Source: Dickeya solani IPO 2222
Lineage (GTDB): Bacteria; Pseudomonadota; Gammaproteobacteria; Enterobacterales; Enterobacteriaceae
Direction: 5' to 3'
Assembly: GCF_001644705.1 (NCBI RefSeq)
Contig: NZ_CP015137.1
Location: 2,310,001-2,342,000, forward strand
Length of the DNA stretch: 32,000 nucleotides
Positions 1,558-25,430 of this stretch are shown piece by piece. Position 1 is the first letter of the stretch. Every line of letters starts with the position of its first letter. The notes below the pieces were generated by a model that was not told the DNA's origin, did no database searches, and was given only the letters and a program-made list of their open reading frames with translations. The translations under genes and the position numbers were made by a program.

Positions 1558-2466
1558 TTACGCCGCTTCCAGCAGCGGCAGGCACTGACTGGCGAGTTCG
1601 CGGCACTTGCTTTTCAGCACCTGTTTGAGTTGCAGGATCTCGTGGGATTGCGGGATGTCGCGGCGGCTGATCAGCATCACCTCAAACGGCAACGGCTGGC
1701 TGATGGGCACGATTTTGAGCTGATCGGCATAGCGGCGGGCGGTAAACAGGTCGACGATGCCGGTGCCGCCACCTGCCAGCACCATATCGGCGATCACCGA
1801 GTAGGTCTTGATGTACAGCGAGGCCGCCGGTTTGAGGCGACGGTCGCGCAGGGCGCGGTGGACGACCTGGCCCAGTGGGTCCTGCTGCTGCATCATCAGC
1901 AGGTTGTTATGGCACAGCCATTCCAGCGACACCGGCCCCTGTTGCGGGCTGTCTTTCGGCAGAATCGCCACCATACGTGACTGGCACAACGGCTCGGCCA
2001 GCAAATCCGGCGGCACCTGTTGGCCGAACACCAGCGCCAGGTCGAGCTGATGCTGCTGAATGTTCTGGCACAGGGTGTTGAAGTGCTCGGTGACCAGTTC
2101 CATGTTCACCAGCGGTGCCTGTTGCTGAAACTCCACCATCGCCGGGGCGACAATCATCTGACCAAACGCGTGGGCGGCGCCGAGCCGTACCGTTTCACGC
2201 TGGCCTTTGCGGATCTGTTCGGTCAGGCGGGAAATACTCTGCAATTGGCTGTAGAGCTGTTCAATCTCCGGCATCAGTTGCTGTCCTTCCACCGTTGGCA
2301 CCAATCCTTGTGAACGGCGTTCGAACAGCGCGAAGCCCAGTTGCTGTTCGGCGTGATTCAGCACCCGGCTGACGTTGGGCTGGGAAACGTTGAGTAACCG
2401 CGCCGCGCCGCTGATGGTGCCGGCCTGAACAATCGCCTGAAAGACTTCGATGTGGCGTAAACGCAT
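1558..2466 (-). CDS. LysR-type transcriptional regulator (302 aa)
   Basis: N-terminal LTTR HTH from the ATG at 2466: MRLRHIEVFQAIVQAGTISGAARLLNVSQPNVSRVLNHAEQQLGFALFERR. A LysR substrate-binding-like C-terminal part follows. The longer track ORF (to 2544) adds a non-homologous leader. Confidence 0.85.
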   Translation of the reverse strand: MRLRHIEVFQAIVQAGTISGAARLLNVSQPNVSRVLNHAEQQLGFALFERRSQGLVPTVEGQQLMPEIEQLYSQLQSISRLTEQIRKGQRETVRLGAAHAFGQMIVAPAMVEFQQQAPLVNMELVTEHFNTLCQNIQQHQLDLALVFGQQVPPDLLAEPLCQSRMVAILPKDSPQQGPVSLEWLCHNNLLMMQQQDPLGQVVHRALRDRRLKPAASLYIKTYSVIADMVLAGGGTGIVDLFTARRYADQLKIVPISQPLPFEVMLISRRDIPQSHEILQLKQVLKSKCRELASQCLPLLEAA

Positions 2467-2556
2467 AACCTGAGTCCTGTTGTGTGATGTGTGCCCGACC
2501 GGCCCGACGGAGCACGATCCAACGCATAAACAAGCAAGATCCACGCCATGTTATTG

Positions 2557-2578: not shown

Positions 2579-2594
2579 AGGCCGCGTCCGCTGG

Positions 2595-3755: not shown

Positions 3756-3876
3756 TTCAGGCGGAGAAATTTTGTTCACCGCGCCACCATTTAAGCCAGT
3801 GCCTGTGATGTCTGTCAAGCCGCAGACAGAAAAAATATATTTTATTCTATTTTAAAATCAGACACTTGGGGGATTA

Positions 3877-10457: not shown

Positions 10458-10604
10458 GGTGCGTTTGTATTGCTATTTAGCCATCGCCGGGTCTTCTTGT
10501 TGCGACCAACTCTAAGTCAGCAAAGGCTATGGCTAGCCTATGCTTCAAGGCAGGGGAGGAGGTATCTCCCCTCTGCCATGATCATTAGTGAAGGTGTTAT
10601 TACA

Positions 10605-11924
10605 TCAATCGTTCCTGCTGGATGAGACTCCCCGCAGGCCGCGCGCGGTCGCAGGCGTACCCGGTGACTGGAGTATGAAGGCATCCGATGGGCCGACTTC
10701 AATCTCACAGATCTCAAGGCCGAGCTGACGACCATCGTTTGACGCGGTCATGGTAATCGTTTCGGCACAATCGATCGTCAGCCGCAGAATGTCGCTGGAT
10801 TGGTTTAGCTCTTGATGCGGTATGAGCGCATCAAAAACCACAACGAACGTGCTTTCTGACCAGCGGTTTAGGGTGGCGGGGTACTCATCAACTTTCAATG
10901 TGAGCTCATCAACCTGGCGTGTCGACAGTATGTTGGTAACTCTAAACCGTATCAGAATATCCCGGTCTTTCCTGAATGGAATATCGATGGTTGCTGTCGG
11001 CGTCGGACCCATCCAACGGCTGAACTTGTGTTCGTTGCGTTCACGGCAATGCCACCCTGTGCCGTTCAATGGTTGTGACATATCCACAACAGTCCAGCCG
11101 GCCGGGCGAATCAAAGCCTTGCGGTAGTTATCCTCCGCGGCGCTCGCAAAATCCACACCATAGGTCGCCTGGAAACGCGCCATTTGCTCGTCGTAGAGTT
11201 CACGGGCAATGGCAACGATTTCCTGGTCGAGATCAATCAGCTGATTGGCCGCTGCTATCGCCTCTTCGCTTAAGCTCGGCTTTTGCTGTTTACTGGCGTG
11301 TATATTGAGCGGCTGTGGCTGGTCTGGAGGGAGCGATAGCCATAATTGCAGCGCGGATAGCGACCGTCCAAAATCCTCCTGGAAGCCGATAAAAGACAGC
11401 GAGCGCAGCGTTTTCTCCGCCCGTTGCCGAACGAAAGCCCGGAAGTCCTGATTATTGGGGGAGCCGTTTCGCCAGGCTTGGCGGTATTCCCCCGGTGCAC
11501 AGGCCAATTGGCAGGTGATTTGGTTCCAGTTAATGTATTGGGATTGCGGATGGCTAAAAAATGCTACCTGATCATTGCGGGCCAAATCGCGAATCAGTTC
11601 ACCACCAGGTATAACGGCAACTTCATCGTCAGTCCAACGGTGCACCATCCACCAGTTAGACACCACCCTGTCCAGCGGGTCTCGTAAAAAGCACATGGTC
11701 GCGACGTTCGATATTTTTTCAGGCCAGTACCAACTGCCGAATGGGTCATGAATAAAACGCGCCCGTGCCAGCCGGTTCGGCTCAAGTTCAACATCGCCGG
11801 AATTCATCTCACTGTAGTGTTCTTCTAAGTGAATACACTCATCGGACGGAAAAAAGTTTTGCAAATACTTTAGCAGCGATGTGCCTGCGCACTTATTAAT
11901 ATGGTGAAAAACAATACGAGGCAT
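10605..11924 (-). CDS. Sulfotransferase-family protein with an unassigned C-terminal domain (439 aa)
   Basis: 5-prime-PSB-like motif HHINKCAGTSLL at residues 7-18. 3-prime-PB-like motif FLRDPLDRVVSNW. The C-terminal ~170 aa (GWHCRERNEHKFSRWMGPT...) resembles the GW..E....RW accessory domain seen on some polysaccharide-modifying enzymes. The gene and flanks have visibly lower G+C than neighbours. SD AAGG lies upstream of the ATG. Confidence 0.65.
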   Translation of the reverse strand: MPRIVFHHINKCAGTSLLKYLQNFFPSDECIHLEEHYSEMNSGDVELEPNRLARARFIHDPFGSWYWPEKISNVATMCFLRDPLDRVVSNWWMVHRWTDDEVAVIPGGELIRDLARNDQVAFFSHPQSQYINWNQITCQLACAPGEYRQAWRNGSPNNQDFRAFVRQRAEKTLRSLSFIGFQEDFGRSLSALQLWLSLPPDQPQPLNIHASKQQKPSLSEEAIAAANQLIDLDQEIVAIARELYDEQMARFQATYGVDFASAAEDNYRKALIRPAGWTVVDMSQPLNGTGWHCRERNEHKFSRWMGPTPTATIDIPFRKDRDILIRFRVTNILSTRQVDELTLKVDEYPATLNRWSESTFVVVFDALIPHQELNQSSDILRLTIDCAETITMTASNDGRQLGLEICEIEVGPSDAFILQSPGTPATARGLRGVSSSRND

Positions 11925-12140
11925 ACCTGACCTTTACTTCCCGTAATAACATACATTAGAAGGAATTGTATTTTAATTATTCATTTAATCATAGTAACAA
12001 CGTGTTACATATTGTGGACTTAATCATTTGTTGCGAGCTGGATCGCTGCTATCGTCTGCTGTCCGGTTGGTTATCGTTACTGCCATCCGTTCGTGAAGAT
12101 GCATGGTGTGGGATTCCGCTTGGCTACCTGGTGACGGATG

Positions 12141-12177
12141 GCGCCAACTATATACGCCAACTATTACGCCAACTATT
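12141..12177. repeat. Tandem repeat, 3 copies of (A/G)CGCCAACTAT(T/AT), 12-13 bp unit
   Basis: Read directly: gcgccaactatat / acgccaactatt / acgccaactatt, 44 bp downstream of the iaaA stop. Confidence 0.8.
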
Positions 12178-12220
12178 AACTGTGCAAACACGAACTATGC
12201 AGACACGGCCGGGATCATTT

Positions 12221-13180
12221 TTACCGATAAATCCCCACGACCGCGTCTTCACCGACGTAACCATAGCCGCGGTACATGCCTTCGCTGTTGAACGGCAGTG
12301 CGATATTGCCCTGATGGTCAACGGCGATCAGTCCGCCGCTGCCGCCCAGCGCCAGTACTTTTTCCATGACGACGTTGTCGGCGGCTTGCGACAGCGGCAG
12401 GTTACCGTATTCCATCAACGCCGAAACGTCGTACGCCGCGACGGTGCGCATGAACACCTCGCCGGTGCCGGTGCAGGAGACGGCGACGGTGCGGTTGTTG
12501 GCGTAACAGCCTGCGCCGACGATCGGTGAGTCGCCGACGCGTCCGGCGCGTTTGTTGGTCATGCCGCCGGTGGAGGTCGCCGCCGCCAGATTACCGCCTG
12601 CGTCCAGCGCTACCGCGCCGACCGTGCCGAACTTGCGATCCGGATCGAGCGGATCGGAGCCCTGCGCCTGACGTTCGCCATCGTGATCCAGCAGGATCTT
12701 GCCGTCGCCTGTCTGCGCTTTCAGCAACTGCTGGTAGCGCTCATCGGTGGAGAAAAAGTCCGGTTCGACCATCTCCAGCCCCTGCTCGCGGGCGAACGTT
12801 TCAGCGCCTTCCGCCGTAAACATCACGTGCGGGCTGCGCTCCAGTACCGCGCGCGCCGCCAGAATCGGGTTGCGGATGTGGTTAACACCGGCGATGGCGC
12901 CCGCTTCCAGCGAACGGCCGTCCATGATGCTGGCGTCCAGTTCGTGGGTGCCGCGGTGGGTAAACACCGCCCCTTTGCCCGCATTGAACAGCGGACACTC
13001 TTCCAGCAGGCGCACCGCTTCGGTGACCGCATCCAGCGCGCTGCCGTTGGCCGCCAGGATTTCCTGACCGCGGGCGACGATGCTTTGCAACGCGGCGCGA
13101 TAGCGCTGTTCTTTCTCGCTGTCCATCGCCGTGCGACTGAGCGCACCCGCGCCGCCATGAATCACAATGACCGGTTTCAT
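12221..13180 (-). CDS. iaaA: Isoaspartyl peptidase / L-asparaginase (Ntn-hydrolase, IaaA/YbiK type), 319 aa
   Basis: MKPVIVIHGGAGALSR N-terminus and autoprocessing region DRKFGTVGAVALD (nucleophile Thr). Length matches E. coli IaaA. ATG at 13180 is preceded by GGAGAG. The track ORF start at 13198 is a GTG inside the repeat array. Confidence 0.85.
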   Translation of the reverse strand: MKPVIVIHGGAGALSRTAMDSEKEQRYRAALQSIVARGQEILAANGSALDAVTEAVRLLEECPLFNAGKGAVFTHRGTHELDASIMDGRSLEAGAIAGVNHIRNPILAARAVLERSPHVMFTAEGAETFAREQGLEMVEPDFFSTDERYQQLLKAQTGDGKILLDHDGERQAQGSDPLDPDRKFGTVGAVALDAGGNLAAATSTGGMTNKRAGRVGDSPIVGAGCYANNRTVAVSCTGTGEVFMRTVAAYDVSALMEYGNLPLSQAADNVVMEKVLALGGSGGLIAVDHQGNIALPFNSEGMYRGYGYVGEDAVVGIYR

Positions 13181-13191
13181 CGTCTCTCCGT

Positions 13192-13271
13192 TATTCACGA
13201 TACTGTTTTTTCACAATACTGTTTATTCACAATACTGTTTATTCACAATACTGTTTATTCACAATACGGTT
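13192..13271. repeat. Tandem repeat array, 5 x 16 bp (consensus TATTCACAATACTGTT)
   Basis: Read directly. Units are at 13192, 13208, 13224, 13240 and 13256. The three central copies are nearly identical and the outer ones have 1-2 changes. The array fills 80 of the 108 bp between the M55 gene stop and the iaaA start. Confidence 0.95.
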
Positions 13272-13288
13272 GATGTTCGCCATACCGC

Positions 13289-14110
13289 TTAGTTCTGCGT
13301 GGTTGCCAGATAGGAAAATGCCCCCAGCAGGCTGACGATCGGCGCGATGGTCGGGGATTGATAACCCACGGTGACGGCGTCTTTGCGGGTGACGCCCGGA
13401 ATCAGGCAGAACAGGTCCGCCAACACCGGTTTGGCGACCATCAGCTCCAGCTCATACGGTGGTTGCAAACGGGTGGTCGTCTCTTTATGCGCCTGTTGCA
13501 CTGCCTGAGTCGCCGCCAGCCGGATGGCGTTGCGCGCCGCTTCGGGACTCAGCGACTCCGCCGCGGTCTGGGAAATGGCGCGTTTCACGCAGGCGTAGTG
13601 GGCGGCCGGGTAGTAGCGGTTGATCCAGCTTTGCAGCGTGTCGTCGCCGCTCACCAGCCACAGCGGGGTGTTCAGCTCCGCGCCGGCGGCGGCGTAGATA
13701 TCGCTTTCGCCCATCACTTCGCCGTTGATGCGCACCCGGTAAAACGCCCGGCCGTTGATGGTGTGCGCCAGCACGCCGTGTTCTCCGGCGGCGCTGTGGT
13801 AGCCGATGAACATCAGGCCATCGAACTGTTGCTGTTGCAAGCCTTCCACCATCGACAGACCGCGCGGTTTGCCCTGTACCAGCCGGGCGCGCGGGTCGAT
13901 ATTTTCAGCGCGCAGGTTGGTCATGGCGGCGTGGCTGTCGGCCACCACCACTTCGCTGGCGCCGCCGGCGAACGCGCCTTCAATGGCGGCGTTCACTTCC
14001 TGCTCCATCAGCCCACGGGCTAACTGGTATTCCGGCGTGCCGGGGCTGCACTGTTCCGGGCGCATCACGCCCGCGATGCCTTCGATATCCGCAGAAATAA
14101 ATACTTTCAT
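13289..14110 (-). CDS. D-aminopeptidase DppA family (peptidase M55), 273 aa
   Basis: MKVFISADIEGIAGV N-terminus, plus VVADSHAAMTNL, SMVEGL, FIGYHS and LVSGDD. These align with Bacillus DppA (M55) as I recall it. Confidence 0.85.
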   Translation of the reverse strand: MKVFISADIEGIAGVMRPEQCSPGTPEYQLARGLMEQEVNAAIEGAFAGGASEVVVADSHAAMTNLRAENIDPRARLVQGKPRGLSMVEGLQQQQFDGLMFIGYHSAAGEHGVLAHTINGRAFYRVRINGEVMGESDIYAAAGAELNTPLWLVSGDDTLQSWINRYYPAAHYACVKRAISQTAAESLSPEAARNAIRLAATQAVQQAHKETTTRLQPPYELELMVAKPVLADLFCLIPGVTRKDAVTVGYQSPTIAPIVSLLGAFSYLATTQN

Positions 14111-14142
14111 GTCAGCGTCCTTATCGCCTGTTCATCAGGCGG

Positions 14143-15201
14143 TTATGCGGGAAAATCCTGTGCCAGACGGTCCAGCACCTGCGTCAGCGCCGGGCGATGG
14201 TGGCCGCGAAAACCGGTGACGGCCTCTGCCTGCAGCAGGGCATCCAGCACCGCGTGTTCGGTGGCGTCGGCCGCCGCGTTGAGCAGTGGTTCCAACTGCG
14301 CGTCTTCCGGCGGTTGGGGTGTCGGTTGCGTGGAAAAGGCCACCGCGATATCGCCGGAGCCGTGTCCCCAGTAGCTGCCGAGCCGCCCAAGTCCGGCGCC
14401 GGCGCGGCGAGCGATGCGGGTCAGCTGGCGGGCATCCAGCGCGGCGTCGGTGGCCATGATGATGATGATGGAGCCGGCGTCTCGTTGGGGCGCCAGTTCC
14501 GGTAACAGCGGCGCAATCGCCTCGCCGACCTGCACGCCGTCCAGCGTCAGGGCGGGAAGGGCGCCGAAATTGGCCAGCACCAGCACGCCGAGGGTGGCGT
14601 TCAGTTCCGGAATCAGCCGGGAAGCGGTGCCGATGCCGCCTTTGAGCGCAAAGCAGCTCATGCCGCGCCCGGCGCCGACGCTGCCGCGGGCAAAATCGGC
14701 GGTAGCGTTGTCCAGCGCCGCGCGCGCCATCGCGTCGGTTACCGCCAGCGCCTGAATATCGTTGAGCCAGCCGTCGTTGCACTCCAGCGCCAGCGGGTTG
14801 ACGGTCGGCAAACTGCGCCCCAGTTCTGGGTTGCGGCCAATGGCGTCGCGCACCAGCGTGGTAAACAACGTGCCGACCGACAGGGTATTACTGAGCAGGA
14901 CAGGCGTCTGCAAGCGTCCCAGCTCTTCAATTTGCACCAGCCCCACCGGTTTGGCGAAGCCGTTAAGCACCGCCGCGCCGCAGGGCAACGGTTGTGTAAA
15001 CAGGTTATCGCCGGGCGGTACGATGGCGGTGACGCCGGTCTGAATCTCACCCTGCGCCAGCGTATGGTGACCGACCCGCACGCCGGGCACGTCGCTCAGG
15101 CGATTGTGCGGGCCGGGAGACATGCGCGGCGTGCCGAGCTGGCGTTCCGCGCGCCAGCGTTGCAGCAGCGGCGCCAGTCGTGCCTGTTGATAAGGAGTCA
15201 T
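14143..15201 (-). CDS. DmpA/P1-family aminopeptidase (peptidase S58, Ntn-type, L-aminopeptidase/D-esterase or beta-aminopeptidase-like), 352 aa
   Basis: NRLSDVPGVRVGHHTL, TGVTAIV, GAGRG and KGGIGTAS are present. A self-cleavage-type site DAG|SIIIIMATDAAL and GSGDIAVAFST are also seen. ATG at 15201 (MTPYQQ) lies 11 nt after the upstream stop. The track ORF to 15369 overlaps the permease gene. Confidence 0.85.
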   Translation of the reverse strand: MTPYQQARLAPLLQRWRAERQLGTPRMSPGPHNRLSDVPGVRVGHHTLAQGEIQTGVTAIVPPGDNLFTQPLPCGAAVLNGFAKPVGLVQIEELGRLQTPVLLSNTLSVGTLFTTLVRDAIGRNPELGRSLPTVNPLALECNDGWLNDIQALAVTDAMARAALDNATADFARGSVGAGRGMSCFALKGGIGTASRLIPELNATLGVLVLANFGALPALTLDGVQVGEAIAPLLPELAPQRDAGSIIIIMATDAALDARQLTRIARRAGAGLGRLGSYWGHGSGDIAVAFSTQPTPQPPEDAQLEPLLNAAADATEHAVLDALLQAEAVTGFRGHHRPALTQVLDRLAQDFPA

Positions 15202-15212
15202 GGTGTCTTCGC

Positions 15213-16115
15213 TCAGCTTTTCAGTTTCGGGTCCAGCGTGTCGCGCAGCGCGTCGCCCAGCAGGTTGAACGCCAGCACGGTGCAGAAGATAGCCAGACCG
15301 GGGAACACGCTCACGTGCCATTGTCCCGCCATCATCATGCTGCGGCTCATCGCCAGAATGTTGCCCCATTCGGGTACGTCAGGCTCCGGTCCCAGGCCGA
15401 TGAAACTCAGGCCGGCCGCGGTCAGGATACTGGTGCCGATGCGCATGGTGAAATAAACAATCACGTTCGACAGGGTGCCCGGCAGAATATGGCGCAGCAG
15501 AATCACCCGGTCCGGCGCGCCGGCGCAGCGCACCGCTTCGACGTAGGCCGCTTGCTTGAGCGACAGCGTGGAGGCACGCACGATGCGGGCGAATACCGGC
15601 ACGCTGAACACCGCCACCGCGATAATCACGTTATTGAGACCGGGGCCGAGGATCGCCACCACCGCGATCGCCAGCAGCATACCGGGAAAAGCAAACAAGA
15701 CGTCGCAGCCGCGCATGATCAGCATATCGATGCTGCGGCCATAATAGCCCGCCAGCAAGCCGAGAGCGATGCCCGCCAACATACCGAGCGAGACCGAGAC
15801 GATGCCGATGTAGAGCGAAATGCGCGCGCCGTAAATAATGCGGCTCATCACGTCGCGGCCCAGATCGTCGGTGCCCATCCAGTGGCTGGCGGAAGGCGCT
15901 GCGCCGAGCGACATCCAGTCCGGATCCATTGGGCTCCGGGGCGCCAGCCAGGGGGCGAACACCGCCACCAGCACCAGCAGCAGTACGAAACCGCCGGAGG
16001 CCAGCGCCATCGGGTTACGGATGAACGCATGCAGAAAATCGCGCCACGGTGAACGAATCGTACTGTTGTTCAGGGCGGATGGGCTCGCCACGGTCGGCTC
16101 TTGAGAAGTGTTCAT
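15213..16115 (-). CDS. ABC peptide transporter permease (GsiD/DppC-like), 300 aa
   Basis: OppC_N-like SHWMGTDDLGRDVMSRIIYGAR followed by a permease core. Confidence 0.9.
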   Translation of the reverse strand: MNTSQEPTVASPSALNNSTIRSPWRDFLHAFIRNPMALASGGFVLLLVLVAVFAPWLAPRSPMDPDWMSLGAAPSASHWMGTDDLGRDVMSRIIYGARISLYIGIVSVSLGMLAGIALGLLAGYYGRSIDMLIMRGCDVLFAFPGMLLAIAVVAILGPGLNNVIIAVAVFSVPVFARIVRASTLSLKQAAYVEAVRCAGAPDRVILLRHILPGTLSNVIVYFTMRIGTSILTAAGLSFIGLGPEPDVPEWGNILAMSRSMMMAGQWHVSVFPGLAIFCTVLAFNLLGDALRDTLDPKLKS

Positions 16116-16123
16116 CGCAGCTC

Positions 16124-17044
16124 CTAACGCAGACGAATGGCCGGGTTCACCACCGCGTACAGCAGGTCGACCAGCAGGTTAATCAGGATAAATTCAAACA
16201 CGAACAGCATCACCAGCGCCTGAATCACCGGCTGATCCTGCGTCTTGATGGATTCGATCAACAACCAGCCAAGCCCCGGCCAGTTGAACACGCTTTCCAC
16301 CACAATAGAGCCGCCCAGCAGAAAACCGAACTGCAACCCAAGCATGGTGATCACCGGAATCAGCGCATTGCGCATAACGTGTTTCCAGACGATCAGCCGC
16401 TGGCGCAGCCCTTTGGCGCGGGCGGTACGCACATAATCTTCCTGCATCACTTCCAGAAACGCGGAGCGGGTAAAGCGCGCCATGACGGCGGCCACCGAGG
16501 CGCCCAACGTTAGCGCGGGCAGAATAATGTCAGCCGGTTTGTTGTAACCGCTGACCGAAAAAATGCCGAACGGCATGGCGACGAATTGGATCAGCAGCAG
16601 ACCAAGCCAGAACGGCGGCATCGAGATACCGCCCACCGCCAGACTCATTAGCGACCAATCCTGCCATTTGCCGCGTTTGAGCGCGGCAAACACGCCGATC
16701 AGCAAGCCGAGCAGCACCGACCAGGCGAAGCCGGCCAGCGCCAGCCACAGCGTCGGCATAAAACTTTTCTGGATGACGGTCAGCACCGGCTGTTGGGTGC
16801 GGTAGGTGATGCCGAGATCACCGTGCGCTAGCCCGTCCAGCCAGTTGAGGTATTGCTGCGGCAGCGGATCGTTCAACCCCAGACGCTCACGGGCGGCTTC
16901 CACCGCCTCGATGGGGGCGTCGGGGCCGGCGTAGATCCGCGCCGGGTCACCCGGTAACAGCTTGATAAAACCGAACACCAACAGGGAGATCACCAGCAAA
17001 ACCGGGATCATTTCCAGCAAACGTCGGACGATATAAGCAAACAT
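16124..17044 (-). CDS. ABC peptide transporter permease (GsiC/DppB-like), 306 aa
   Basis: Same length as E. coli GsiC, with long recalled identities (LPGDPAR, TLGASVAAVMARFTRS, DYVRTARAKG, MLGLQFGFLLGGSIVVE.VFNWPGLG, INPAIR). Confidence 0.9.
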   Translation of the reverse strand: MFAYIVRRLLEMIPVLLVISLLVFGFIKLLPGDPARIYAGPDAPIEAVEAARERLGLNDPLPQQYLNWLDGLAHGDLGITYRTQQPVLTVIQKSFMPTLWLALAGFAWSVLLGLLIGVFAALKRGKWQDWSLMSLAVGGISMPPFWLGLLLIQFVAMPFGIFSVSGYNKPADIILPALTLGASVAAVMARFTRSAFLEVMQEDYVRTARAKGLRQRLIVWKHVMRNALIPVITMLGLQFGFLLGGSIVVESVFNWPGLGWLLIESIKTQDQPVIQALVMLFVFEFILINLLVDLLYAVVNPAIRLR

Positions 17045-17061
17045 GGCGATCCCCTGTGTGA

Positions 17062-18618
17062 TTACTTGAACTCAGCCTGATCGAAGATCAGCGAACCGTC
17101 AGCCAGCATGTAAACGCCGGACAGATTTTTCACTTTGCCTACCAGGTTGTCCGGCACGCCCAGGAACACCACCGGCGCGTCTTTCCAGATCAACTTCTGG
17201 GCATCGGCGTAAGCAGCGGCGCGTTTGTCGTTATCCGCGGTCGCCAGGCCGGCCATGATGGCTTTATCCACATCCGGGTTGCTGTAGTAAGAGACGTTGT
17301 AGGCTTTCGGTACCCAGGACTCGGTGGCGAACAGTGGACGCAGCGCCCAGTCGGCGTCGCCGGTGGACGGCGACCAGCCGCCGTAGTACAGGTCAAACTC
17401 AGCCTGTTTCGGGTCTTTCACGCCCCACAATTTTTCGTTGCGCGCGCCGGAATCCATCGGGGTTACGGTCGCCTTGATGCCGACCTGCTCCAGTTGCTGT
17501 TTGAAGAACTGCGCACTGCGCACCGCGGCGGTGGTGTTGGTGGTCCACAGTTTCAGTTCCAGCCCGTTCTCGTAGCCGGCTTCTTTCAACAGTTCTTTGG
17601 CCTTGGCCGGGCTGTAGGTGTAGTTCGGTTCGCTCTGGCTGGCGAAGAACTGTACGCGCGGCGCCATCGCAGACGCGGCAGGCAGGCCCATGCCGGCAAA
17701 ACCGACTTTCAACCAGATGGTACGGTTGATGGCGTAGTTCAGCGCCTGGCGTACACGCACGTCGTTCAGTGGCGCATGCTGGGTGTTGATCGCCATATAG
17801 TACAGATAGATGCTGGGGTCGCGTTGGATCGCCAGCTTGGTGTCATCTTCAATGGTTTTTACCAGATCGGACGGCAGCGGGTAGATGGCGTCGGACTGGC
17901 CGGATTTCAGCGCGGCGACGCGGGTAGCGTCTTCCGGCGACGGGTAGAAGGTCACGCTGTCGACTTTCGGCCAGCCTTTCTGCCAGTAGTTGTCATATTT
18001 CACCAGCTTGACGTCTTTGCCCTGCTGCCATTCGGAGAACTTGAACGGGCCGGTGCCGACCGGGTGCACGCGCAGTTGGGTTTCGTCCGGGTACTGTTTC
18101 AGCGCCGCCGGGCTGTGCATGACCGCCGACGGATGGGCCAGCGTGTTGACGAAGGCGCCGAAGGATTTGTTCAGCTCGATTTTTACTTGCGTCGGCGACA
18201 GTACCGTCACGGTTTTGATCATGTTGAACAGGCTGTTGCGTTTGAGCCCTTTGGTCTGATCGGCCAGACGGTCAAGGTTGGCTTTCACCGCATCGGCGTT
18301 GAACGGCGTGCCGTCCTGGAAGGTGACGCCTTCGCGCAGGGTGATGGTGAATTCGGTGGCGTCGGCGTTGCCGGTATAGCCGGTAGCCAGCCGCGGCACC
18401 AGTTTCATCTGGTTGTCGAACTGGAACAAACGCTCGAAGATCCCGCTCTGGATGGAGTAGCTCAGGGTGTCTGAGGTGTCGTGCGGGTCCAGCCCGGTGA
18501 TATCGGCATACATGGAAATACGCAGATCCTGCGCCTGAGCCGCAGCGGCCAGACACAATGACAGCCCAAGAGCGACGGCGGAACGACGTGAAGTTACTGT
18601 GGATAGTAACGATTTCAT
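17062..18618 (-). CDS. ABC transporter periplasmic peptide-binding protein (GsiB-like, SBP family 5), 518 aa
   Basis: Sec signal peptide MKSLLSTVTSRRSAVALGLSLCLAAAAQA. SBP_bac_5-like body. Strong SD AGGAG (complement of 18624-18628). Confidence 0.9.
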   Translation of the reverse strand: MKSLLSTVTSRRSAVALGLSLCLAAAAQAQDLRISMYADITGLDPHDTSDTLSYSIQSGIFERLFQFDNQMKLVPRLATGYTGNADATEFTITLREGVTFQDGTPFNADAVKANLDRLADQTKGLKRNSLFNMIKTVTVLSPTQVKIELNKSFGAFVNTLAHPSAVMHSPAALKQYPDETQLRVHPVGTGPFKFSEWQQGKDVKLVKYDNYWQKGWPKVDSVTFYPSPEDATRVAALKSGQSDAIYPLPSDLVKTIEDDTKLAIQRDPSIYLYYMAINTQHAPLNDVRVRQALNYAINRTIWLKVGFAGMGLPAASAMAPRVQFFASQSEPNYTYSPAKAKELLKEAGYENGLELKLWTTNTTAAVRSAQFFKQQLEQVGIKATVTPMDSGARNEKLWGVKDPKQAEFDLYYGGWSPSTGDADWALRPLFATESWVPKAYNVSYYSNPDVDKAIMAGLATADNDKRAAAYADAQKLIWKDAPVVFLGVPDNLVGKVKNLSGVYMLADGSLIFDQAEFK

Positions 18619-18634
18619 GGTGTCTCCTGTAAAT

Positions 18635-18660
18635 GGTGTGTGTTGCTGGTTGTGTTGCTG
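18635..18660 (-). promoter_or_regulatory. C/A-rich element in the 5-prime leader of the binding-protein gene (mRNA sense CAGCAACACAACCAGCAACACACACC)
   Basis: Read directly, with an internal near-duplication of a 11-12 nt unit. It lies just upstream of the SD. It resembles the C/A-rich targets of the G/U-rich R1 region of GcvB sRNA on peptide-transporter mRNAs. Confidence 0.3.
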
Positions 18661-18769
18661 CTTTCGATTATTGTTTGTTTTTATTACTGTTTAATTTTCC
18701 CGCTATCAGTACATTGCTGATGCGGTGATAACCCACAGACAGTGGGGTGTCCCTGGTGTTGGACGATAC

Positions 18770-18857
18770 TATTGTTCACTACTGACTATTGTTCACTACT
18801 GACTATTGTTCACTACTGACTACTGTTCACTACTGACTACGGTTTACTGCTACTGAC
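18770..18857. repeat. Tandem repeat array, 4 x 17 bp (TATTGTTCACTACTGAC) plus a degenerate 20-bp fifth copy that runs into the 3-prime end of the ATPase gene
   Basis: Read directly. Units are at 18770, 18787, 18804 and 18821 (one change), with a degenerate copy at 18838-18857. The stop codon of the upstream ATPase gene (18837-18839) and its last codons (SVSSSKP) lie in the degenerate copy. Confidence 0.9.
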
Positions 18858-20735
18858 GGACGGCTCAAGTCCGGCCTCGCTCACCCAATGGTGCGGGGCG
18901 ACTTCGCGGTAGCGGGCTTTTTCCACCACCTCGTTCGCCTTGCGCAGCGGCGAGGGGATTTCGCTGTCGTCCAGCTCGCGTGCATAGCGGCGGCTGGGGT
19001 CGGCAATCGGCACCGAGGCCAGCAGGCGTTGGGTATACGGATGCTGCGGGTTGTTGAATACCGACTGACGCGGGCCGATTTCCACGATCTGACCGAGGTA
19101 CATCACCGCTACGCGGTTGGCGATGCGTTCCACCACCGCCATATCGTGGGAGATGAAAATCCACGACACGCCGGTTTTCTGCTGTAAATCCATCATCAGG
19201 TTGACCACCTGCGCCTGAATCGACACGTCCAGCGCCGACACCGCCTCGTCGGCGATGATGACTTGCGGTTGCAGCGCCATGGCACGGGCGATGGCGATAC
19301 GCTGGCGCTGGCCGCCGGAGAACTCGTGCGGGTAGCGTTGGGCGTGTTCCGGTTGCAGGCCGACGCTTTTCAGCAGCGCCTGTACCTGCGGCGTGGCGTC
19401 TTCCAGCGATTTCACCAGCCCGTGCAGCAGCAGCGGTTCGGCGATGGTGAAACCGACGGTCAGGCGTGGGTTGAGCGACGCGTACGGGTCCTGAAACACC
19501 ATCTGCATTTTGCGGCGCAGCGGCTGGAAGTCGCGGTCGCGCAGACTGGCGATTTCCTGCCCGTCGAACAGCAGGCTGTCGGTCTGGCTTTCCACCAGAC
19601 GCAGCAGTGCCCGCCCGGTGGTGGATTTGCCGCAGCCGGATTCGCCGACAATCGCCAGCGTTTCGCCCGGCCACACGGCGAAATCGATCTGTTCCACCGC
19701 ATGTACCCGGTGGGTAACGGAGGAGAGAATGCCGCTGCGTATCGGGTAATAGACTTTCAGGCCGCGGATGTCGAGCAGCGGCGGCGCGTCATAACGCGCG
19801 GTGGTATGGTCTTGTTCGGGCGCGGCGTTTTGCTGCCCCAGCAGCGGGAAGCGTTTAGGCCAGGCGCTGTCGCGCATGTCGCCCAAGCGCGGTACCGCCG
19901 CCAGCAGCGCTTTGGTGTAGTCGTGCTGCGGGCGGTTGAAAATGGCGTCCACAGTCCCGTGTTCCACCACCTCGCCGCGGTACATCACCACTACGCGGTC
20001 GGCGATTTCCGCCACCACGCCCATGTCGTGGGTGATGAATAACACCGACATGTTGCTCTGGCGCTGCAGGTCGCGCAGGATTTGCAGGATGCGCGCCTGC
20101 ACGGTTACATCCAGCGCGGTGGTGGGTTCGTCGGCGATCAGCAACTGTGGGTCGCACGCCAGCGCCTGAGCGATCATCACCCGCTGGCGCATGCCGCCGG
20201 ACAGCGAGTGCGGGTAGCTGTTCATCACCCGGTCGATGTCGGCGATGCGCACCTTACGCAGCAGCTCGCGCGCCTTGCGGTCAGCGCTGGCGGCGTCGCA
20301 CATCTGGTGGTCCAGCAACGCTTCGGTGAGCTGGTCGCCTACTTTCAGCACTGGGTTGAGCGAGGTCATCGGCTCCTGAAAGATCATCGCCATATCGCGG
20401 CCGCGCAGCCGACGGCGGGCGTCGTCCTTCATGGTCAGCAGATCGTGGCGGCGGCCGGCGTTATCGATAAAACGGATGCCGCCGCGTTCAATGCGGGCGG
20501 ACGCGGCCAGCAGCCCCATCACCGTCAGAGAGGTGACCGACTTGCCGGAACCACTCTCGCCGACCACGGCCACCACTTCCCCTTTATTGAGGCTGAAAGA
20601 GACGCCCTTGAGCGCCTGATGGGTGCCGGAGCGGCCGCTGAAGCTAACGCTCAGGTCATCGATCTCCAGCACCGGTTGCGGCACCGGGTCGGACGCGATC
20701 GCAGCAGGGATTGCGGTTGAGGTGGTATCCGTCAT
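18837..20735 (-). CDS. Fused double-ATPase ABC transporter protein (GsiA-like), about 632 aa
   Basis: Two complete NBDs: Walker A GESGSGKS and GESGCGKS; signatures LSGGMRQRV and FSGGQRQRI; Walker [13 protein letters not shown] and VIIADEAVSALD. ATG at 20735 is preceded by GGAG (5-nt spacer). The track start (GTG at 20759) overlaps the epimerase stop and remains possible. Confidence 0.9.
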   Translation of the reverse strand: MTDTTSTAIPAAIASDPVPQPVLEIDDLSVSFSGRSGTHQALKGVSFSLNKGEVVAVVGESGSGKSVTSLTVMGLLAASARIERGGIRFIDNAGRRHDLLTMKDDARRRLRGRDMAMIFQEPMTSLNPVLKVGDQLTEALLDHQMCDAASADRKARELLRKVRIADIDRVMNSYPHSLSGGMRQRVMIAQALACDPQLLIADEPTTALDVTVQARILQILRDLQRQSNMSVLFITHDMGVVAEIADRVVVMYRGEVVEHGTVDAIFNRPQHDYTKALLAAVPRLGDMRDSAWPKRFPLLGQQNAAPEQDHTTARYDAPPLLDIRGLKVYYPIRSGILSSVTHRVHAVEQIDFAVWPGETLAIVGESGCGKSTTGRALLRLVESQTDSLLFDGQEIASLRDRDFQPLRRKMQMVFQDPYASLNPRLTVGFTIAEPLLLHGLVKSLEDATPQVQALLKSVGLQPEHAQRYPHEFSGGQRQRIAIARAMALQPQVIIADEAVSALDVSIQAQVVNLMMDLQQKTGVSWIFISHDMAVVERIANRVAVMYLGQIVEIGPRQSVFNNPQHPYTQRLLASVPIADPSRRYARELDDSEIPSPLRKANEVVEKARYREVAPHHWVSEAGLEPSVSSSKP

Positions 20736-20755
20736 CGTCACTCCGGTAGGTTCTG

Positions 20756-21721
20756 TCACAGCCAGATGCGGCCGAGGTTATACGTCAGGTACGGCGAGCT
20801 GTCCGCCGCCAGCCAGATCGGGCCGTCCAGATCCACGTGTTCGGCGGCCAGCGCCGCCGGCATGGCGGCTTCCATCGCCAGCGAGGAGCCGAGCATGCAG
20901 CCCACCATGATGCGCATGTCGTACTGGCGCGCTTCGGCTACCATCGCCAGCGCTTCGGTCAGCCCGCCGCACTTGTCCAGTTTGATGTTGATCATCTCGT
21001 AGCGGTCACGCAGAGCGGCAATGTCGCCACGGTGGTGGCAGCTTTCGTCGGCGCACACCGGAATGGCGTGTTTAAACGTCGCCAGCTCGCTGTCCTGCCC
21101 GGCGGGCAACGGTTGTTCCACCATCGCGATGCGATGCGCGGCCAACTGGCGCAACAGCGGCTCCAGTTCCAGCCCGCTCCAGGCTTCGTTGGCGTCCACA
21201 ATCAGCGTCACGTTGGGCGCGGACTGGCGAATCGCCGCCACCTTTTCCAGAATCTGTTCCCGGTCGAGTTTGATTTTCAGCAGTAGCGCACCGCGGGAGA
21301 CCGCGTCTCTGGCGGCGTTCGCCATGTTTTCCACACTGTCGAGACTCAGGGTTTCAGCGGTGACGATCGACTGCGGCGGTGCGATGGCGAGGTGCTGCCA
21401 CAGCGTCTGTCTGGCAAGCGCGGCGTTCAGCCGCCATAAGGCGCAGTCCAGCGCGTTGCGGGCGGAACCCGGCGGCAGCAACTGCTGCAGTTCTTCCAGA
21501 CCGATGTCGTTTTCCACCGCCTGACGCACGGTTTCCAACTGGTGGGTCACGCTGTCGGCGGTTTCCTGATAGTGGACGGTGGGGGTGCATTCCCCCCGGC
21601 CGATAAAGCCGCGCTCTTCCAGCGTCACGCGCACCACCGTGACCGCGGTGCGGGTGCCGCGGGAAATGGCGAAAGGCCGGGCCAGCGGCAGTTCCACGGT
21701 TTCGATTTGCATCTGTCGCAT
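20756..21721 (-). CDS. Enolase-superfamily dipeptide epimerase (L-Ala-D/L-Glu epimerase YcjG-like), 321 aa
   Basis: Same length as E. coli YcjG, with many recalled identical blocks: ARNALDCALW, LLKIKLD, TLIVDANEAW, MVEQPLPA, CADESCH, YEMINIKLDKCGGLTEALA and DLDGPIWLA. Confidence 0.85.
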   Translation of the reverse strand: MRQMQIETVELPLARPFAISRGTRTAVTVVRVTLEERGFIGRGECTPTVHYQETADSVTHQLETVRQAVENDIGLEELQQLLPPGSARNALDCALWRLNAALARQTLWQHLAIAPPQSIVTAETLSLDSVENMANAARDAVSRGALLLKIKLDREQILEKVAAIRQSAPNVTLIVDANEAWSGLELEPLLRQLAAHRIAMVEQPLPAGQDSELATFKHAIPVCADESCHHRGDIAALRDRYEMINIKLDKCGGLTEALAMVAEARQYDMRIMVGCMLGSSLAMEAAMPAALAAEHVDLDGPIWLAADSSPYLTYNLGRIWL

Positions 21722-21725
21722 GGGC

Positions 21726-22733
21726 TTACCCCTGGGTTTTCAGCAGCGTTGCAATGTCATCAATACCGAAACGGATCGGGTCGGTGGCGGGCACGCCGAA
21801 ACGTTCGCTCAGTTCGCGGCAGTAATCGCGCGCTGCCTGTTCGCCATAGTTGGAGGTATTGATGGCGAAACCGGCCAACTGTACATCCGGGTTGGTGACG
21901 CGCGCAGCGCGCAGGTTGGCGTCCACGCAGTCGCCCAGTTCCACCATCGGTTGATGGGGCAGGTGACGCATGTGCGGGCGGCCCATTTCGTGGCACATCA
22001 CCAGCCAGTGCGGTTGTGCGCCGTGGATAAGACCGGTAGTCACCCCAGCGTAGGACGGATGAAACAGCGAACCCTGACCTTCGACGATATCCCAGTGGTC
22101 GTCGTCGTTGGCCGGAGACAGTGCTTCCGCCGCGCCGGCGATGAAGTCGGCGATCACCGCGTCAATGGCGATACCGTCGCCGGCGACCAGCACCCCGGTC
22201 TGTCCGGTGGCGCGGAAGTCGGCTTTCAGACCCTGCGCGCGCATGGCGGATTCCAGCGCCAGCGAGGTGTACATCTTACCGACCGAACAGTCGGTGCCGA
22301 CGGTCAGCACGCGTTTACCGCTGCGTTTTTTGCCGCTGCCGACGGTCAGTTCCGGGCGCATATGTCGAATATCGAACAGTTGTACCTGATGCTGTTCCGC
22401 CAGCTCCTGCAAACCGGGGACGTCGATCAGGCGCTGATGCAGGCCGTTGGCGACGTTCATGCCGGCTTCGATCGCGGCGCGCACGGTATCCAGCCAGTGC
22501 GGCGGCAGGAAACCGCCGGCGTTGGCGGTACCCAGTACCAGCGTTTTGGCGCCGCGCGCCACGGCGGACGGAATATCCAGATCATCGAGCCCCAGCGACA
22601 CCGTGCTGCCCGGCAGGCGCAGCTGTCCTACGCACTGTTCGGGGCGCCAGGTGTGAATGCCGCGCGCCGTTTTCACCGCCAGCGGGTCGGTCACGTCGCC
22701 AAGAAAAAGCAGGTAAGGTTGTGGAATCAGCAT
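21726..22733 (-). CDS. DUF1611-family protein (DgcN-like putative N-acetyltransferase), 335 aa
   Basis: Family-typical blocks: PYLLFLGD, the P-loop-like VGTDCSVGKMYTSL and EGQGSLFHPSYAG. First gene of the minus-strand operon, 4 nt upstream of the epimerase gene. Confidence 0.75.
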   Translation of the reverse strand: MLIPQPYLLFLGDVTDPLAVKTARGIHTWRPEQCVGQLRLPGSTVSLGLDDLDIPSAVARGAKTLVLGTANAGGFLPPHWLDTVRAAIEAGMNVANGLHQRLIDVPGLQELAEQHQVQLFDIRHMRPELTVGSGKKRSGKRVLTVGTDCSVGKMYTSLALESAMRAQGLKADFRATGQTGVLVAGDGIAIDAVIADFIAGAAEALSPANDDDHWDIVEGQGSLFHPSYAGVTTGLIHGAQPHWLVMCHEMGRPHMRHLPHQPMVELGDCVDANLRAARVTNPDVQLAGFAINTSNYGEQAARDYCRELSERFGVPATDPIRFGIDDIATLLKTQG

Positions 22734-22745
22734 GATGTCTTATCC

Positions 22746-22767
22746 GTGGTTGCATAGTGGTTGCATA
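22746..22767. repeat. Perfect tandem duplication 2 x 11 bp (GTGGTTGCATA) in the 5-prime leader of the DUF1611 gene
   Basis: Read directly, 13 bp from the start codon at 22733. mRNA sense is UAUGCAACCAC x2. Confidence 0.85.
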
Positions 22768-22832
22768 AAAAGAGATATCTAAGACTATTCCACGATGCTT
22801 TTTTTCTGACGAATGCTTGTTTATAGGTAGGG

Positions 22833-22849
22833 TATAACCTGAGGTTATA
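22833..22849. promoter_or_regulatory. Perfect 17-bp palindrome TATAACC-TGA-GGTTATA upstream of the locus B operon (candidate operator with an ATA-N9-TAT, LTTR-box-like core)
   Basis: Read directly, about 100-115 bp upstream of the DUF1611 start, inside the AT-rich intergenic region 22734-22984. Confidence 0.4.
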
Positions 22850-22984
22850 GAGCTGATTTTATTTAATTTATTGTTATTTAAGGATTACTGTTTCCAAATG
22901 CCCGCGGGGTATAGCGTCGGGTTATGCTGAAACAGGCAGATCAAAATCTTTTGTATTGATGAAAAATACGCGCGGCGATCGTGT

Positions 22985-23317
22985 TTAACCGTTGATGAAA
23001 CCCACCAGCAAGCTTGACGCGGTCACCATGACCGTTAACACCAGCAGCCGCAGCATCCACATCGATTGTCGGGTACAGGGGTAGCCGCTGCGCAATAGGG
23101 CGCGCAACCGCAGACGCGACCAGATATAGGTAATCAGCGTCATCAGCAGCAGAAACAGCCCGGCGGCCAGCATCAGCGGCTGGCTTTTCATCGTTCCGGC
23201 TTTCAACAGCAACACGCTGTTGACCAGCAGCACAAACGCGGTCCGCGACCAGGCAAGCCGCGTGCGTTCCGGCTGCAAGCCCGGATCGCGCGGTGGGTTA
23301 TCGGCAGAGGGAATCAT
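22985..23317 (-). CDS. yidG: DUF202 inner-membrane protein YidG-like (110 aa)
   Basis: The DPGLQPERTRLAWSRT motif is shared with E. coli YidG. Three hydrophobic helices follow. Confidence 0.75.
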   Translation of the reverse strand: MIPSADNPPRDPGLQPERTRLAWSRTAFVLLVNSVLLLKAGTMKSQPLMLAAGLFLLLMTLITYIWSRLRLRALLRSGYPCTRQSMWMLRLLVLTVMVTASSLLVGFING

Positions 23318-23323
23318 GGCGGC

Positions 23324-23710
23324 CTACAGCAGCAGGATAACCAAAGCCAGCGCAACGGAAATGGCGCTCACGCAACTGGCGATGATAATCAGCAGGCGGG
23401 TATAAGGCAGCGCTTGCCCGGTGCGCATCGCCTGCTCGTTGTCGGCCCAGCGCCGATAAGCCATCCACGCCAGCAGCGCCGCCGCCAGCGACAGAAACAC
23501 CGCAATGCCGCCCCAGACGGCGGGCGGCGCCAGCGTGGGCGCAAACTGGTCAATGGCGACCGCGCCTGCCAGAAACGCCAGCGCGGTGCGAATCCACGCC
23601 AGAAACGTGCGCTCGTTGGCCAGCGAAAAGCGGTAATCCGGCGTCGAACCCTGCTGCTGCCACGGGGTTTTCTTGTTGGACGACGTCGGTGAAGAAGCTG
23701 GGTCACTCAT
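23324..23710 (-). CDS. yidH: DUF202 inner-membrane protein YidH-like (about 128 aa)
   Basis: PDYRFSLANERTFLAWIRTALAFLAGAVAIDQF closely matches E. coli YidH. The start is at ATG 23710 (or 23716). The track ORF to 23926 runs across the rph promoter and start and is not credible. Confidence 0.8.
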   Translation of the reverse strand: MSDPASSPTSSNKKTPWQQQGSTPDYRFSLANERTFLAWIRTALAFLAGAVAIDQFAPTLAPPAVWGGIAVFLSLAAALLAWMAYRRWADNEQAMRTGQALPYTRLLIIIASCVSAISVALALVILLL

Positions 23711-23831
23711 GGGCATCAACGGCCTGCGGATGGACAATGCCCGCATTCTACATGGCTGGGCGGCGGCTCTCCAGTCAGCGAATCGGGCGACAGCGGAAAA
23801 AAATTGATGAAATTTTAATCCCGCCTGGCGG

Positions 23832-23860
23832 TAGGCAGGACAAGGGGAAGACCGTATAAT
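23832..23860 (+). promoter_or_regulatory. Candidate sigma-70 promoter for rph-pyrE (TAGGCA-N17-TATAAT)
   Basis: Perfect -10 hexamer at 23855-23860. The -35 at 23832-23837 is a 4/6 match with 17-bp spacing. It lies 37 bp upstream of the rph ATG. Confidence 0.45.
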
Positions 23861-23896
23861 GCGCGCCAGTTTAATGAACCTGCCCGGAGACGAGCC

Positions 23897-25365: not shown

Positions 25366-25384
25366 AACAGTTCGGCGTGTAAAA
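25351..25384. repeat. Perfect tandem duplication 2 x 17 bp (CAGTTCGGCGTGTAAAA) spanning the pyrE stop codon
   Basis: Read directly. Copy 1 (25351-25367) encodes QFGV-stop. Copy 2 (25368-25384) repeats it immediately downstream. Confidence 0.9.
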
Positions 25385-25430
25385 TAGCGGGCGTGAAGTA
25401 AGCGGCGTGGCGATGTGCCACGCAGTGCGT

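Follow-up and report, generated by a model that had tools for sequence, protein, structure and literature searches.

A predicted import and catabolism operon for D-glutamate-containing peptides in Dickeya solani

Why would a bacterium place an importer of the Gsi type in one array with enzymes for D-amino acids and for peptide bonds that ordinary peptidases cannot cut? The question is raised by nine co-directional open reading frames (ORFs) on the minus strand of Dickeya solani IPO 2222, which span positions 12221-22733 of the window (the whole stretch of DNA analysed, 32,000 nucleotides, positions 2,310,001 to 2,342,000 of contig NZ_CP015137.1). The reading that we favor, to which we give a probability of roughly 55%, is that this operon would import small peptides carrying D-Glu (possibly also D-Asp), hydrolyze them in the cytoplasm, and then invert the stereochemistry of the released D-Glu. 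The ligand and the order of the steps are inferred from the kinds of proteins encoded, which are as follows, in the order of transcription.

21726..22733, minus strand: dgcN, predicted D-glutamate N-acetyltransferase (DUF1611), by the NCBIfam DgcN equivalog, PDB 7XRJ, and the RefSeq name
20756..21721, minus strand: dgcA, predicted N-acetyl-D-Glu racemase of the enolase superfamily (DgcA/YcjG family), by NCBIfam and pairing with dgcN
18837..20735, minus strand: fused double ATPase of the Gsi-like peptide ATP-binding cassette (ABC) importer, with two ABC_tran and two oligo_HPY domains
17062..18618, minus strand: periplasmic family-5 substrate-binding protein (SBP_bac_5, E = 2e-95)
16124..17044, minus strand: GsiC-like permease (Pfam; 53% identical to GsiC)
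15213..16115, minus strand: GsiD-like permease (Pfam; 55% identical to GsiD)
14143..15201, minus strand: S58/P1-family (DmpA-like) Ntn-hydrolase aminopeptidase, predicted to be cytoplasmic (PF03576, E = 1e-102)
13289..14110, minus strand: M55-family (DppA-like) D-aminopeptidase (PF04951 over its full length, E = 5e-96)
12221..13180, minus strand: iaaA-like isoaspartyl (beta-aspartyl) peptidase/L-asparaginase (PF01112, Asparaginase_2, E = 5e-119)

The array and its recurrence

The original prediction, made from the letters of the DNA, had described a nine-gene minus-strand array and named a family for each product. Both descriptions held, as the ORFs lie in a single run and Pfam returned a full-length match for each of them. 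The prediction had also taken the array for one module of import plus catabolism, directed at peptides beyond the reach of ordinary peptidases, and this view fits both the conserved gene order and the D-stereospecific families of the neighboring genes described below. Identical sequences of all nine proteins were found in D. solani genomes. With the starts of the public annotation (20735 for the ATPase, 15201 for the S58 enzyme, and 13180 for iaaA), the eight junctions from dgcN to iaaA measure 4, 20, 218, 17, 8, 11, 32, and 108 nucleotides (nt), and Shine-Dalgarno sequences are seen ahead of the ATPase, the binding protein, and iaaA. Terminator-like sites numbered 12 in the region, which is the expectation from shuffled sequence, and none fell within any junction, while Rfam gave no match to a structured RNA or riboswitch at E <= 1 over positions 11000-24500. 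We infer that the nine genes are cotranscribed as one operon.

One genome per species was scanned with an alignment of DgcN, yielding 80 loci. A core of eight genes (dgcN, dgcA, ATPase, binding protein, two permeases, S58, and M55) was found in identical order in Dickeya, Lonsdalea, Rouxiella, Rahnella, Pantoea, Klebsiella indica, Agarivorans, and Vibrio tritonius, with protein identities to the window of 63-91% across these loci. The same order recurs in eight genera and is not due to chance. A survey of gene neighborhoods had been suggested for the Enterobacterales; the order does recur there but is not confined to that group, as the Vibrio and Agarivorans loci indicate. The genes flanking the module differ wherever comparison was possible, and the DgcA sequences of the module loci form a single clade in a neighbor-joining tree. 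Conserved as it is, the eight-gene module travels as one block. The ninth gene, iaaA, is present in Dickeya, Lonsdalea, and Agarivorans; the IaaA of the window is 70% identical to that of Agarivorans versus 66% to that of Escherichia coli, and therefore the nine-gene arrangement may be the older state.

The dgcN-dgcA pair extends well beyond the module. A dgcA homolog follows dgcN directly in ~75 of ~85 genomes sampled (the gap in the window is 4 nt). The flanking ORFs scanned at other dgcN-dgcA loci include class-IV (D-amino-acid) aminotransferases (11/122), alanine racemases (5/120), and LysR-type regulators (11/120), and in Phytohalomonas the pair lies beside an amino-acid ABC transporter. 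None of the ~61 non-module dgcN-dgcA loci carried S58, M55, or a peptide ABC transporter, and therefore the peptide module is one lineage-specific feed to a general D-Glu cassette. In Emcibacter (positions 7878-17361 of that locus), dgcN-dgcA is found between a PGA_cap-domain protein on one side and a tripartite ATP-independent periplasmic (TRAP) transporter with a gamma-glutamyltranspeptidase on the other, which suggests a variant feeding on gamma-glutamyl or poly-gamma-glutamate compounds.

From importer to putative racemase

The first two genes match the characterized DgcN-DgcA pair, and we predict the corresponding enzyme activities for them. The product of dgcN has the P-loop architecture DUF1611_N plus DUF1611 in Pfam, scores 525.6 bits on the NCBIfam equivalog NF041892 (cutoff, 480), and is closely related to the protein of the solved structure 7XRJ (E = 4.6e-106). 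The dgcA product, with Pfam domains MR_MLE_N/C, reaches 432 bits on the DgcA model NF042940 (cutoff, 400), and RefSeq already uses the names DgcN and DgcA for the two proteins. According to PMC11747546, PMC12363236, and PMC10845958, DgcN (EC 2.3.1.312) and DgcA (EC 5.1.1.25) convert D-Glu into N-acetyl-D-Glu and this into N-acetyl-L-Glu; these papers cite Yu et al. 2023 (ISME J 17:537) for the route. "DUF1611 plus a YcjG-like epimerase," as the pair had first been called, was thus right as to the families, but the identity above the equivalog cutoffs, and in RefSeq, is DgcN-DgcA.

Separating DgcA from YcjG within this family is less straightforward. With E. coli YcjG the window protein shares 48% identity, and it also passes the YcjG model (357.5 bits versus a cutoff of 343). 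E. coli YcjG, used as a control, scored 677 bits on its own model and 424 on the DgcA model, that is, above the cutoff for DgcA; therefore, the DgcA model cannot split the two functions, and the NCBIfam models were discarded as discriminators. In an alignment with 1JPD, the KxK and Lys acid/base residues, the Asp/Glu/Asp metal ligands, and the DxD motif of the window protein all find their counterparts, with roles that we take to be those of the enolase-superfamily literature. The DxD motif (DLDGP, residues 297-301) shows no variation among the 75 DgcN-linked sequences and YcjG, so it is uninformative in this respect, and the neighbor-joining tree (no outgroup) gave no clean split either. We assign the enzyme to DgcA because of its constant pairing with dgcN and because it has no mpaA-type neighbor. 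The E. coli ycjG locus includes mpaA, and a Pfam scan of 19 window ORFs found no murein-peptide enzyme of the MpaA, LdcA, or YkfC type among them.

Three further observations concern these genes. In CP051459, whose locus is otherwise identical, dgcA (positions 11013-11977 of that locus) was called as two ORFs of 57 and 264 amino acids (aa); several unrelated neighbor genes are split there too, and frameshift or assembly errors could explain the divided dgcA. A DgcN homolog (72% identical), annotated as "dithiobiotin synthetase," has been retained by Candidatus Gullanella endobia, an insect endosymbiont with a reduced genome. A DUF1611 gene of Dickeya dadantii reported to be induced in filamentous cells (DDA3937_RS07110) was considered as well but could not be mapped to this locus.

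If the enzyme were a YcjG instead, the module could serve the salvage of murein stem peptides (L-Ala-gamma-D-Glu-meso-diaminopimelate [mDAP], L-Ala-D-Glu, and D-Ala-D-Ala), with epimerization to L-Ala-L-Glu and the peptidases finishing the degradation. The score on the YcjG model, the retention of DxD and of all YcjG catalytic residues, and the grouping of YcjG with DgcN-linked sequences in the tree all agree with this explanation, and the Bacillus subtilis dpp-ykf cluster offers a precedent for the scavenging of D-peptides from cell walls. A second such precedent is the Pab87 locus of Pyrococcus (PMC2651629). However, a true YcjG scores far higher on its own model (677 bits versus 357.5 here), the gene is invariably accompanied by dgcN, for which such a scheme offers no role, and the 19 ORFs scanned contain no MpaA, LD-carboxypeptidase, or NlpC/P60 gamma-D-Glu endopeptidase. 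The binding protein, moreover, resembles GsiB and not MppA or OppA. We therefore regard murein stem-peptide salvage as a possible but unlikely function. Salvage of murein-derived or environmental D-/iso-peptides had been the proposal of the original prediction: the scavenging of D-peptides fits what we found, but the set of enzymes expected for murein peptides is lacking among the ORFs scanned. In the same way, a role in L-Ala-D-Glu metabolism is not the default for a pair of DgcN-DgcA equivalogs, although it is possible given the behavior of E. coli YcjG on the DgcA model.

The transporter consists of the fused ATPase, the binding protein, and two permeases with the BPD_transp_1 domain, one of them also with OppC_N and the other with BPD_transp_1_N. 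The ATPase is 56% identical to E. coli GsiA and the two permeases 53 and 55% identical to GsiC and GsiD, while the binding protein is the part that has diverged most from Gsi (41% identity to GsiB). Among solved structures, it is closest to E. coli GsiB/YliB (1UQW, E = 4.8e-125). All four Gsi equivalog cutoffs were missed (bits/cutoff: GsiA, 821/1077; GsiB, 495.6/594; GsiC, 400.7/463; and GsiD, 396.9/484). The label "glutathione binding protein" in RefSeq is consequently an annotation problem, the name being given without equivalog support. Inspection of the N termini revealed a signal peptide on the binding protein and none on the enzymes; therefore, hydrolysis should come after import.

These data bear on a simpler explanation, in which an ordinary Gsi importer of glutathione, oxidized glutathione (GSSG), and gamma-glutamyl or isoaspartyl peptides lies by chance beside independent D-amino-acid genes with which it has no substrate in common. 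The A-B-C-D gene order, the identities of 53-56% to GsiA, GsiC, and GsiD, the RefSeq label, and the linkage of iaaA to gsi in E. coli too are what it would predict. The missed cutoffs and the divergence of the binding protein argue against it, as do the short junctions and the fact that eight genera keep the eight genes together in one order, although the flanks differ wherever comparison was possible. A chance neighborhood of this kind seems very unlikely to us.

The three peptidases look functional, as judged from their intact catalytic and self-processing motifs. The S58 enzyme matches the structures of Pyrococcus PH0078 (2DRH, 5e-74), DmpA (1B65, 3.7e-45), and BapA (2e-40), and its Gly-Ser self-cleavage site and Ser-Gly-Asp triplet align with G249/S250 and S288-D290 of DmpA (residue numbers counted on the alignment), positions that presumably have these roles in DmpA. 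The M55 enzyme aligns with B. subtilis DppA (1HI9, E = 6e-33) with identical residues at D8, E10, H60, H104, and E133, which we take to be the metal ligands; its score on the DppA NCBIfam equivalog was 163.2 bits, under the cutoff of 430. IaaA has its Gly-Thr autoprocessing site in the sequence KFGTVGAVA, and its 496.6 bits on the corresponding equivalog likewise fall short of the cutoff (567).

Activity on beta-amino acids, which had also been predicted, is not specifically indicated, since the S58 enzyme is closer to PH0078 and DmpA than to the beta-peptidase BapA. The same comparison is relevant to the idea that the substrates are amino-acid amides or esters (D or L) or beta-peptides, the S58 enzyme being an amidase of the DmpA/BapA type. 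Its homologs do have such activities (amidase/esterase in DmpA, beta-peptidase in BapA), and family-5 binding proteins for amino-acid amides exist (bioRxiv 10.1101/2024.02.22.581678). However, the bit scores place the S58 enzyme nearer PH0078 (253) than BapA (142), and the joint presence of M55, IaaA, and DgcN-DgcA would be left unexplained. We hold this idea to be highly improbable.

In a variant of our proposal, the module would be devoted to isopeptides whose linkage runs through the carboxyl group of a side chain (gamma-D-glutamyl-X and beta-(D-)aspartyl-X), and DgcN-DgcA would carry out the final inversion of stereochemistry. Such compounds could come from the stems and cross-bridges of peptidoglycan, from poly-gamma-glutamate, or from D-amino-acid conjugates of plants. 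Gsi-type binding proteins may recognize a free alpha-amino-acid head group, such as the gamma-Glu of glutathione, and the E. coli iaaA-gsiABCD operon would then be a trimmed relative of a larger module. The invariance of DxD might further indicate that enzymes of the DgcA family accept dipeptidyl as well as N-acetyl D-Glu. We offer this restriction to isopeptides as a speculative and rather doubtful idea.

Under the broader proposal, which concerns D-Glu (and possibly D-Asp) peptides in general, the operon would be induced by a LysR-type regulator, and the binding protein with its Gsi-like ABC transporter would import small peptides carrying D-Glu, perhaps D-Asp. In the cytoplasm, S58, M55, and, in Dickeya, IaaA would cut the bonds that resist ordinary peptidases and release the D-residue. 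DgcN would then N-acetylate the released D-Glu and DgcA would racemize N-acetyl-D-Glu to N-acetyl-L-Glu, which could be deacetylated to L-Glu or pass straight into arginine synthesis. The proposal that the substrates are D-peptides draws on the neighboring genes, which are also of D-stereospecific families.

Several points weigh against this scheme. Sequence alone cannot tell DgcA from YcjG, so that the enzyme could be an L-Ala-D-Glu epimerase, and in the neighbor-joining tree, which has no outgroup, YcjG falls beside the gammaproteobacterial DgcN-linked clade and not outside the family. In dipeptide epimerases, the DxD motif binds the ammonium group of the substrate. An N-acetylated substrate has no free ammonium group and hence no obvious need for an invariant DxD. 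The operon contains no N-acetyl-L-Glu deacetylase. As for its expression, internal promoters could lie in the 218- and 108-nt spacers, and the candidate LysR gene is found ~19 kb from the operator, beside another cluster.

Regulation and neighboring genes

Regulation was missed in the original prediction, which mentioned neither the LysR gene, nor its operator, nor a second transporter cluster with M19 and S12 enzymes. The elements concerned with regulation are listed here.

22734..22984, minus strand: noncoding leader/promoter region upstream of dgcN, a 251-bp AT-rich gap from the yidG-like gene to the dgcN ATG
22830..22848, minus strand: palindromic LysR-type box ATAACCTCAGGTTATACCC (T-N11-A), candidate regulator site, unique in the window and conserved
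22783..22822, minus strand: AAACAAGCATTCGTC (22808-22822) followed by cgTGGAATAGTC (22783-22794), candidate activator site plus extended -10
1558..2544, minus strand: LysR-family gene, candidate operon regulator (Pfam HTH_1 and LysR_substrate)

The motifs of the leader are kept in nine genera. The box is a perfect palindrome, ATAACCTCAGGTTAT(ACCC), at 22830-22848; the window has a single occurrence, whereas shuffled sequences give an expectation of 0, and no second copy, for example before the second transporter, was found in the window. It is present upstream of dgcN in all module loci, at a distance from the ATG that is 100-125 nt in most of them and 236 nt in Lonsdalea. The same box occurs in the non-module loci of Photobacterium, Cognaticolwellia, Phytohalomonas, and Hyphomonas. 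Closer to the gene, TGGAATAGTC stands ~13 nt after AAACAAGCATTCGTC, and the combination of AAACAAGCATTCGTC and cgTGGAATAGTC is kept in most module loci, with Agarivorans and K. indica diverging. A scan with the sigma-70 consensus found 0 promoter-like sites in the region. The layout appears typical of the site of a LysR-type activator placed by a weak -35 with an extended -10.

There is no regulator gene within the nine-gene operon itself. The LysR protein encoded in the window shares 60-66% identity with the LysR proteins whose genes immediately adjoin the module in Rouxiella, Rahnella, Agarivorans, and V. tritonius, a range that also takes in the LysR beside the lone dgcN of Ewingella. In contrast, it is only 31-37% identical to the dgcN-adjacent LysR of Pseudoalteromonas, Vibrio, and Photobacterium; at this low identity, it can be called only a putative ortholog of the published DgcR. 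The operon is probably under LysR-type control, with the LysR protein of the window as the candidate regulator. In Ewingella (positions 10001-11978 of that locus), the LysR gene directly follows dgcN, with neither dgcA nor a transporter, and the locus looks like the decayed remnant of a module.

The leader and the two longest spacers also contain tandem repeats.

22746..22767, minus strand: 11-nt tandem duplication (TATGCAACCAC x2) just before the dgcN start, absent in other genera
18768..18839, minus strand: tandem repeat of a 17-nt unit (4.2 copies), where the 218-nt spacer between ATPase and binding protein begins
13191..13271, minus strand: 16-nt tandem repeat, 5.1 copies, in the 108-nt spacer between M55 and iaaA

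The 218- and 108-bp lengths and the repeats first described for these two spacers agree with what we found. The repeats in the spacers were considered as regulatory elements and rejected, given that copy number varies among strains (in another Dickeya strain, three copies of the 17-mer versus four here, and two of the 16-mer versus five here) and that neither the 17-nt nor the 16-nt repeat is found in Lonsdalea or Agarivorans. They are strain-variable variable-number tandem repeats (VNTRs), not conserved signals. The 17-mer and the 16-mer have a CAGTA..TGAAyAA core in common. Further short intergenic repeats are located at 12142-12178 and 25350-25395, and all such units are 11-17 nt long and rich in stop codons.

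At the other end of this part of the window, a second cluster (1558-10457, which includes the LysR gene) is convergent with the nine-gene operon. Its remaining genes are the following.

2595-3677, minus strand: M19 dipeptidase (Pfam; closest solved relatives 3LY0/3FDG, 2e-118)
3877-5472 (binding protein), 5472-7381 (permeases), and 7382-8209 and ~8209-8949 (ATPases), plus strand: second peptide ABC importer, five genes (Pfam)
~8946-10457, plus strand: S12/beta-lactamase-fold D-peptidase-like gene (Pfam and structure relatives)

Bacterial M19 enzymes prefer L-Xaa-D-Xaa dipeptides, and the solved structures nearest to the S12 protein are D-stereospecific enzymes without exception: the D-aminopeptidase of O. 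anthropi (1EI5), an alkaline D-peptidase (4Y7P), and the R61 DD-peptidase. An S12 homolog (62% identical) is convergent to the M55 gene of the module in K. indica, and the S12 family is found at the same position beside the module in Pantoea. Together, cluster and operon are bounded by yicC (565-1512) and yidH/yidG-like genes (22985-23926), and the nine-gene operon may be one arm of a D-peptide island of ~21 kb.

Two other observations were made in this interval. A perfect palindrome (TGCACC-N5-GGTGCA) is located at 3734-3750, in the divergent promoter region between the M19 gene and the second binding protein; it differs from the dgcN box, and therefore the second cluster may have another regulator. 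Between the two clusters (10605-11924) there is a 439-aa sulfotransferase-2-like gene (weak Pfam match; WcbF-like in UniRef) with low local GC (0.51), of which shorter versions (400 and 192 aa) are found in public D. solani records. This gene may be a separate insertion.

Comparison with known systems

We found no description of the module in the searchable literature, a search that did not take in the figures of the primary DgcN-DgcA paper (Yu et al. 2023). The claim that this combination was undescribed stands to that extent; on the other hand, the families are known, the DgcN-DgcA route is characterized, and the two genes already carry RefSeq names. What appears to be undescribed is the union of DgcN-DgcA with a Gsi-like importer, S58, M55, and IaaA, together with its conserved operator and LysR partner and its spread in plant-associated Enterobacterales and some marine gammaproteobacteria.

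As a store of nitrogen, the D-amino acids of bacterial cell walls are abundant and hard to degrade, and to our knowledge, the DgcN-DgcA route has so far been linked only to marine bacteria and to D-Glu in its free form. The module suggests that the plant-associated Dickeya, Lonsdalea, Pantoea, and Rahnella, and some Vibrio and Agarivorans, feed DgcN-DgcA from imported peptides. The set to be tested is concrete and easy to handle, as it comprises a single binding protein, three peptidases, a regulator, and an operator. For annotation, the acceptance of the biochemically characterized E. coli YcjG by the NCBIfam DgcA model means that names assigned automatically to members of this family may not be reliable.

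The closest relative of the first two genes is the DgcR-DgcN-DgcA system for D-glutamate catabolism of Pseudoalteromonas sp. CF6-2 (Yu et al. 2023, as cited in PMC12363236 and PMC10845958). The dgcN-dgcA genes match at the equivalog level and are adjacent and in the same order, accompanied by a LysR-type gene and a palindromic box. In the window, however, this cassette is joined in a single array to a peptide ABC importer and two or three peptidases, and the Dickeya regulator gene is not adjacent.

The transporter half resembles E. coli iaaA-gsiABCD, the importer of glutathione and GSSG (PMC11719327 and PMC6236770), in its succession of fused ATPase, family-5 binding protein, and two permeases and in the IaaA homolog within the same operon. 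The first position of iaaA in E. coli, stated in the original prediction, was confirmed; iaaA comes last in the window, which also has four extra enzymes. Another E. coli system, the breakdown of murein tripeptide by YcjG and MpaA, shares the family of YcjG with the window enzyme but differs from the window, where mpaA is missing from the neighborhood and the gene is always paired with dgcN.

Importers grouped with D-stereospecific peptidases are known from two other systems. B. subtilis dppA-dppBCDE-ykfABCD combines an M55 D-aminopeptidase, a dipeptide ABC transporter, and the L-Ala-D/L-Glu epimerase YkfB, so that, as in the window, M55, a peptide ABC importer, and an epimerase/racemase of the enolase superfamily are found in one array, which in B. 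subtilis is read as serving the use of cell-wall peptides. DgcN, S58, and IaaA are absent from dpp-ykf, whereas no homolog of YkfA (LD-carboxypeptidase) or YkfC (NlpC/P60) was found among the 19 window ORFs scanned. The Pab87 locus of Pyrococcus abyssi, for which scavenging of environmental D-peptides has been proposed, encodes an S12 CubicO D-peptidase, a D-aminoacylase, and a dipeptide ABC transporter (PMC2651629). It shares with the window the clustering of D-stereospecific peptidases with a dipeptide ABC transporter, and the best solved relative of the window S58 enzyme (2DRH) is also from Pyrococcus. The enzyme set of this archaeal locus is another one, with a D-aminoacylase in the place where the window has N-acetylation and racemization. 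The clustering of an importer with D-stereospecific peptidases is therefore not new in itself, as Pab87 and dpp-ykf illustrate, and the Dickeya module is a new combination of known parts rather than a new kind of system.

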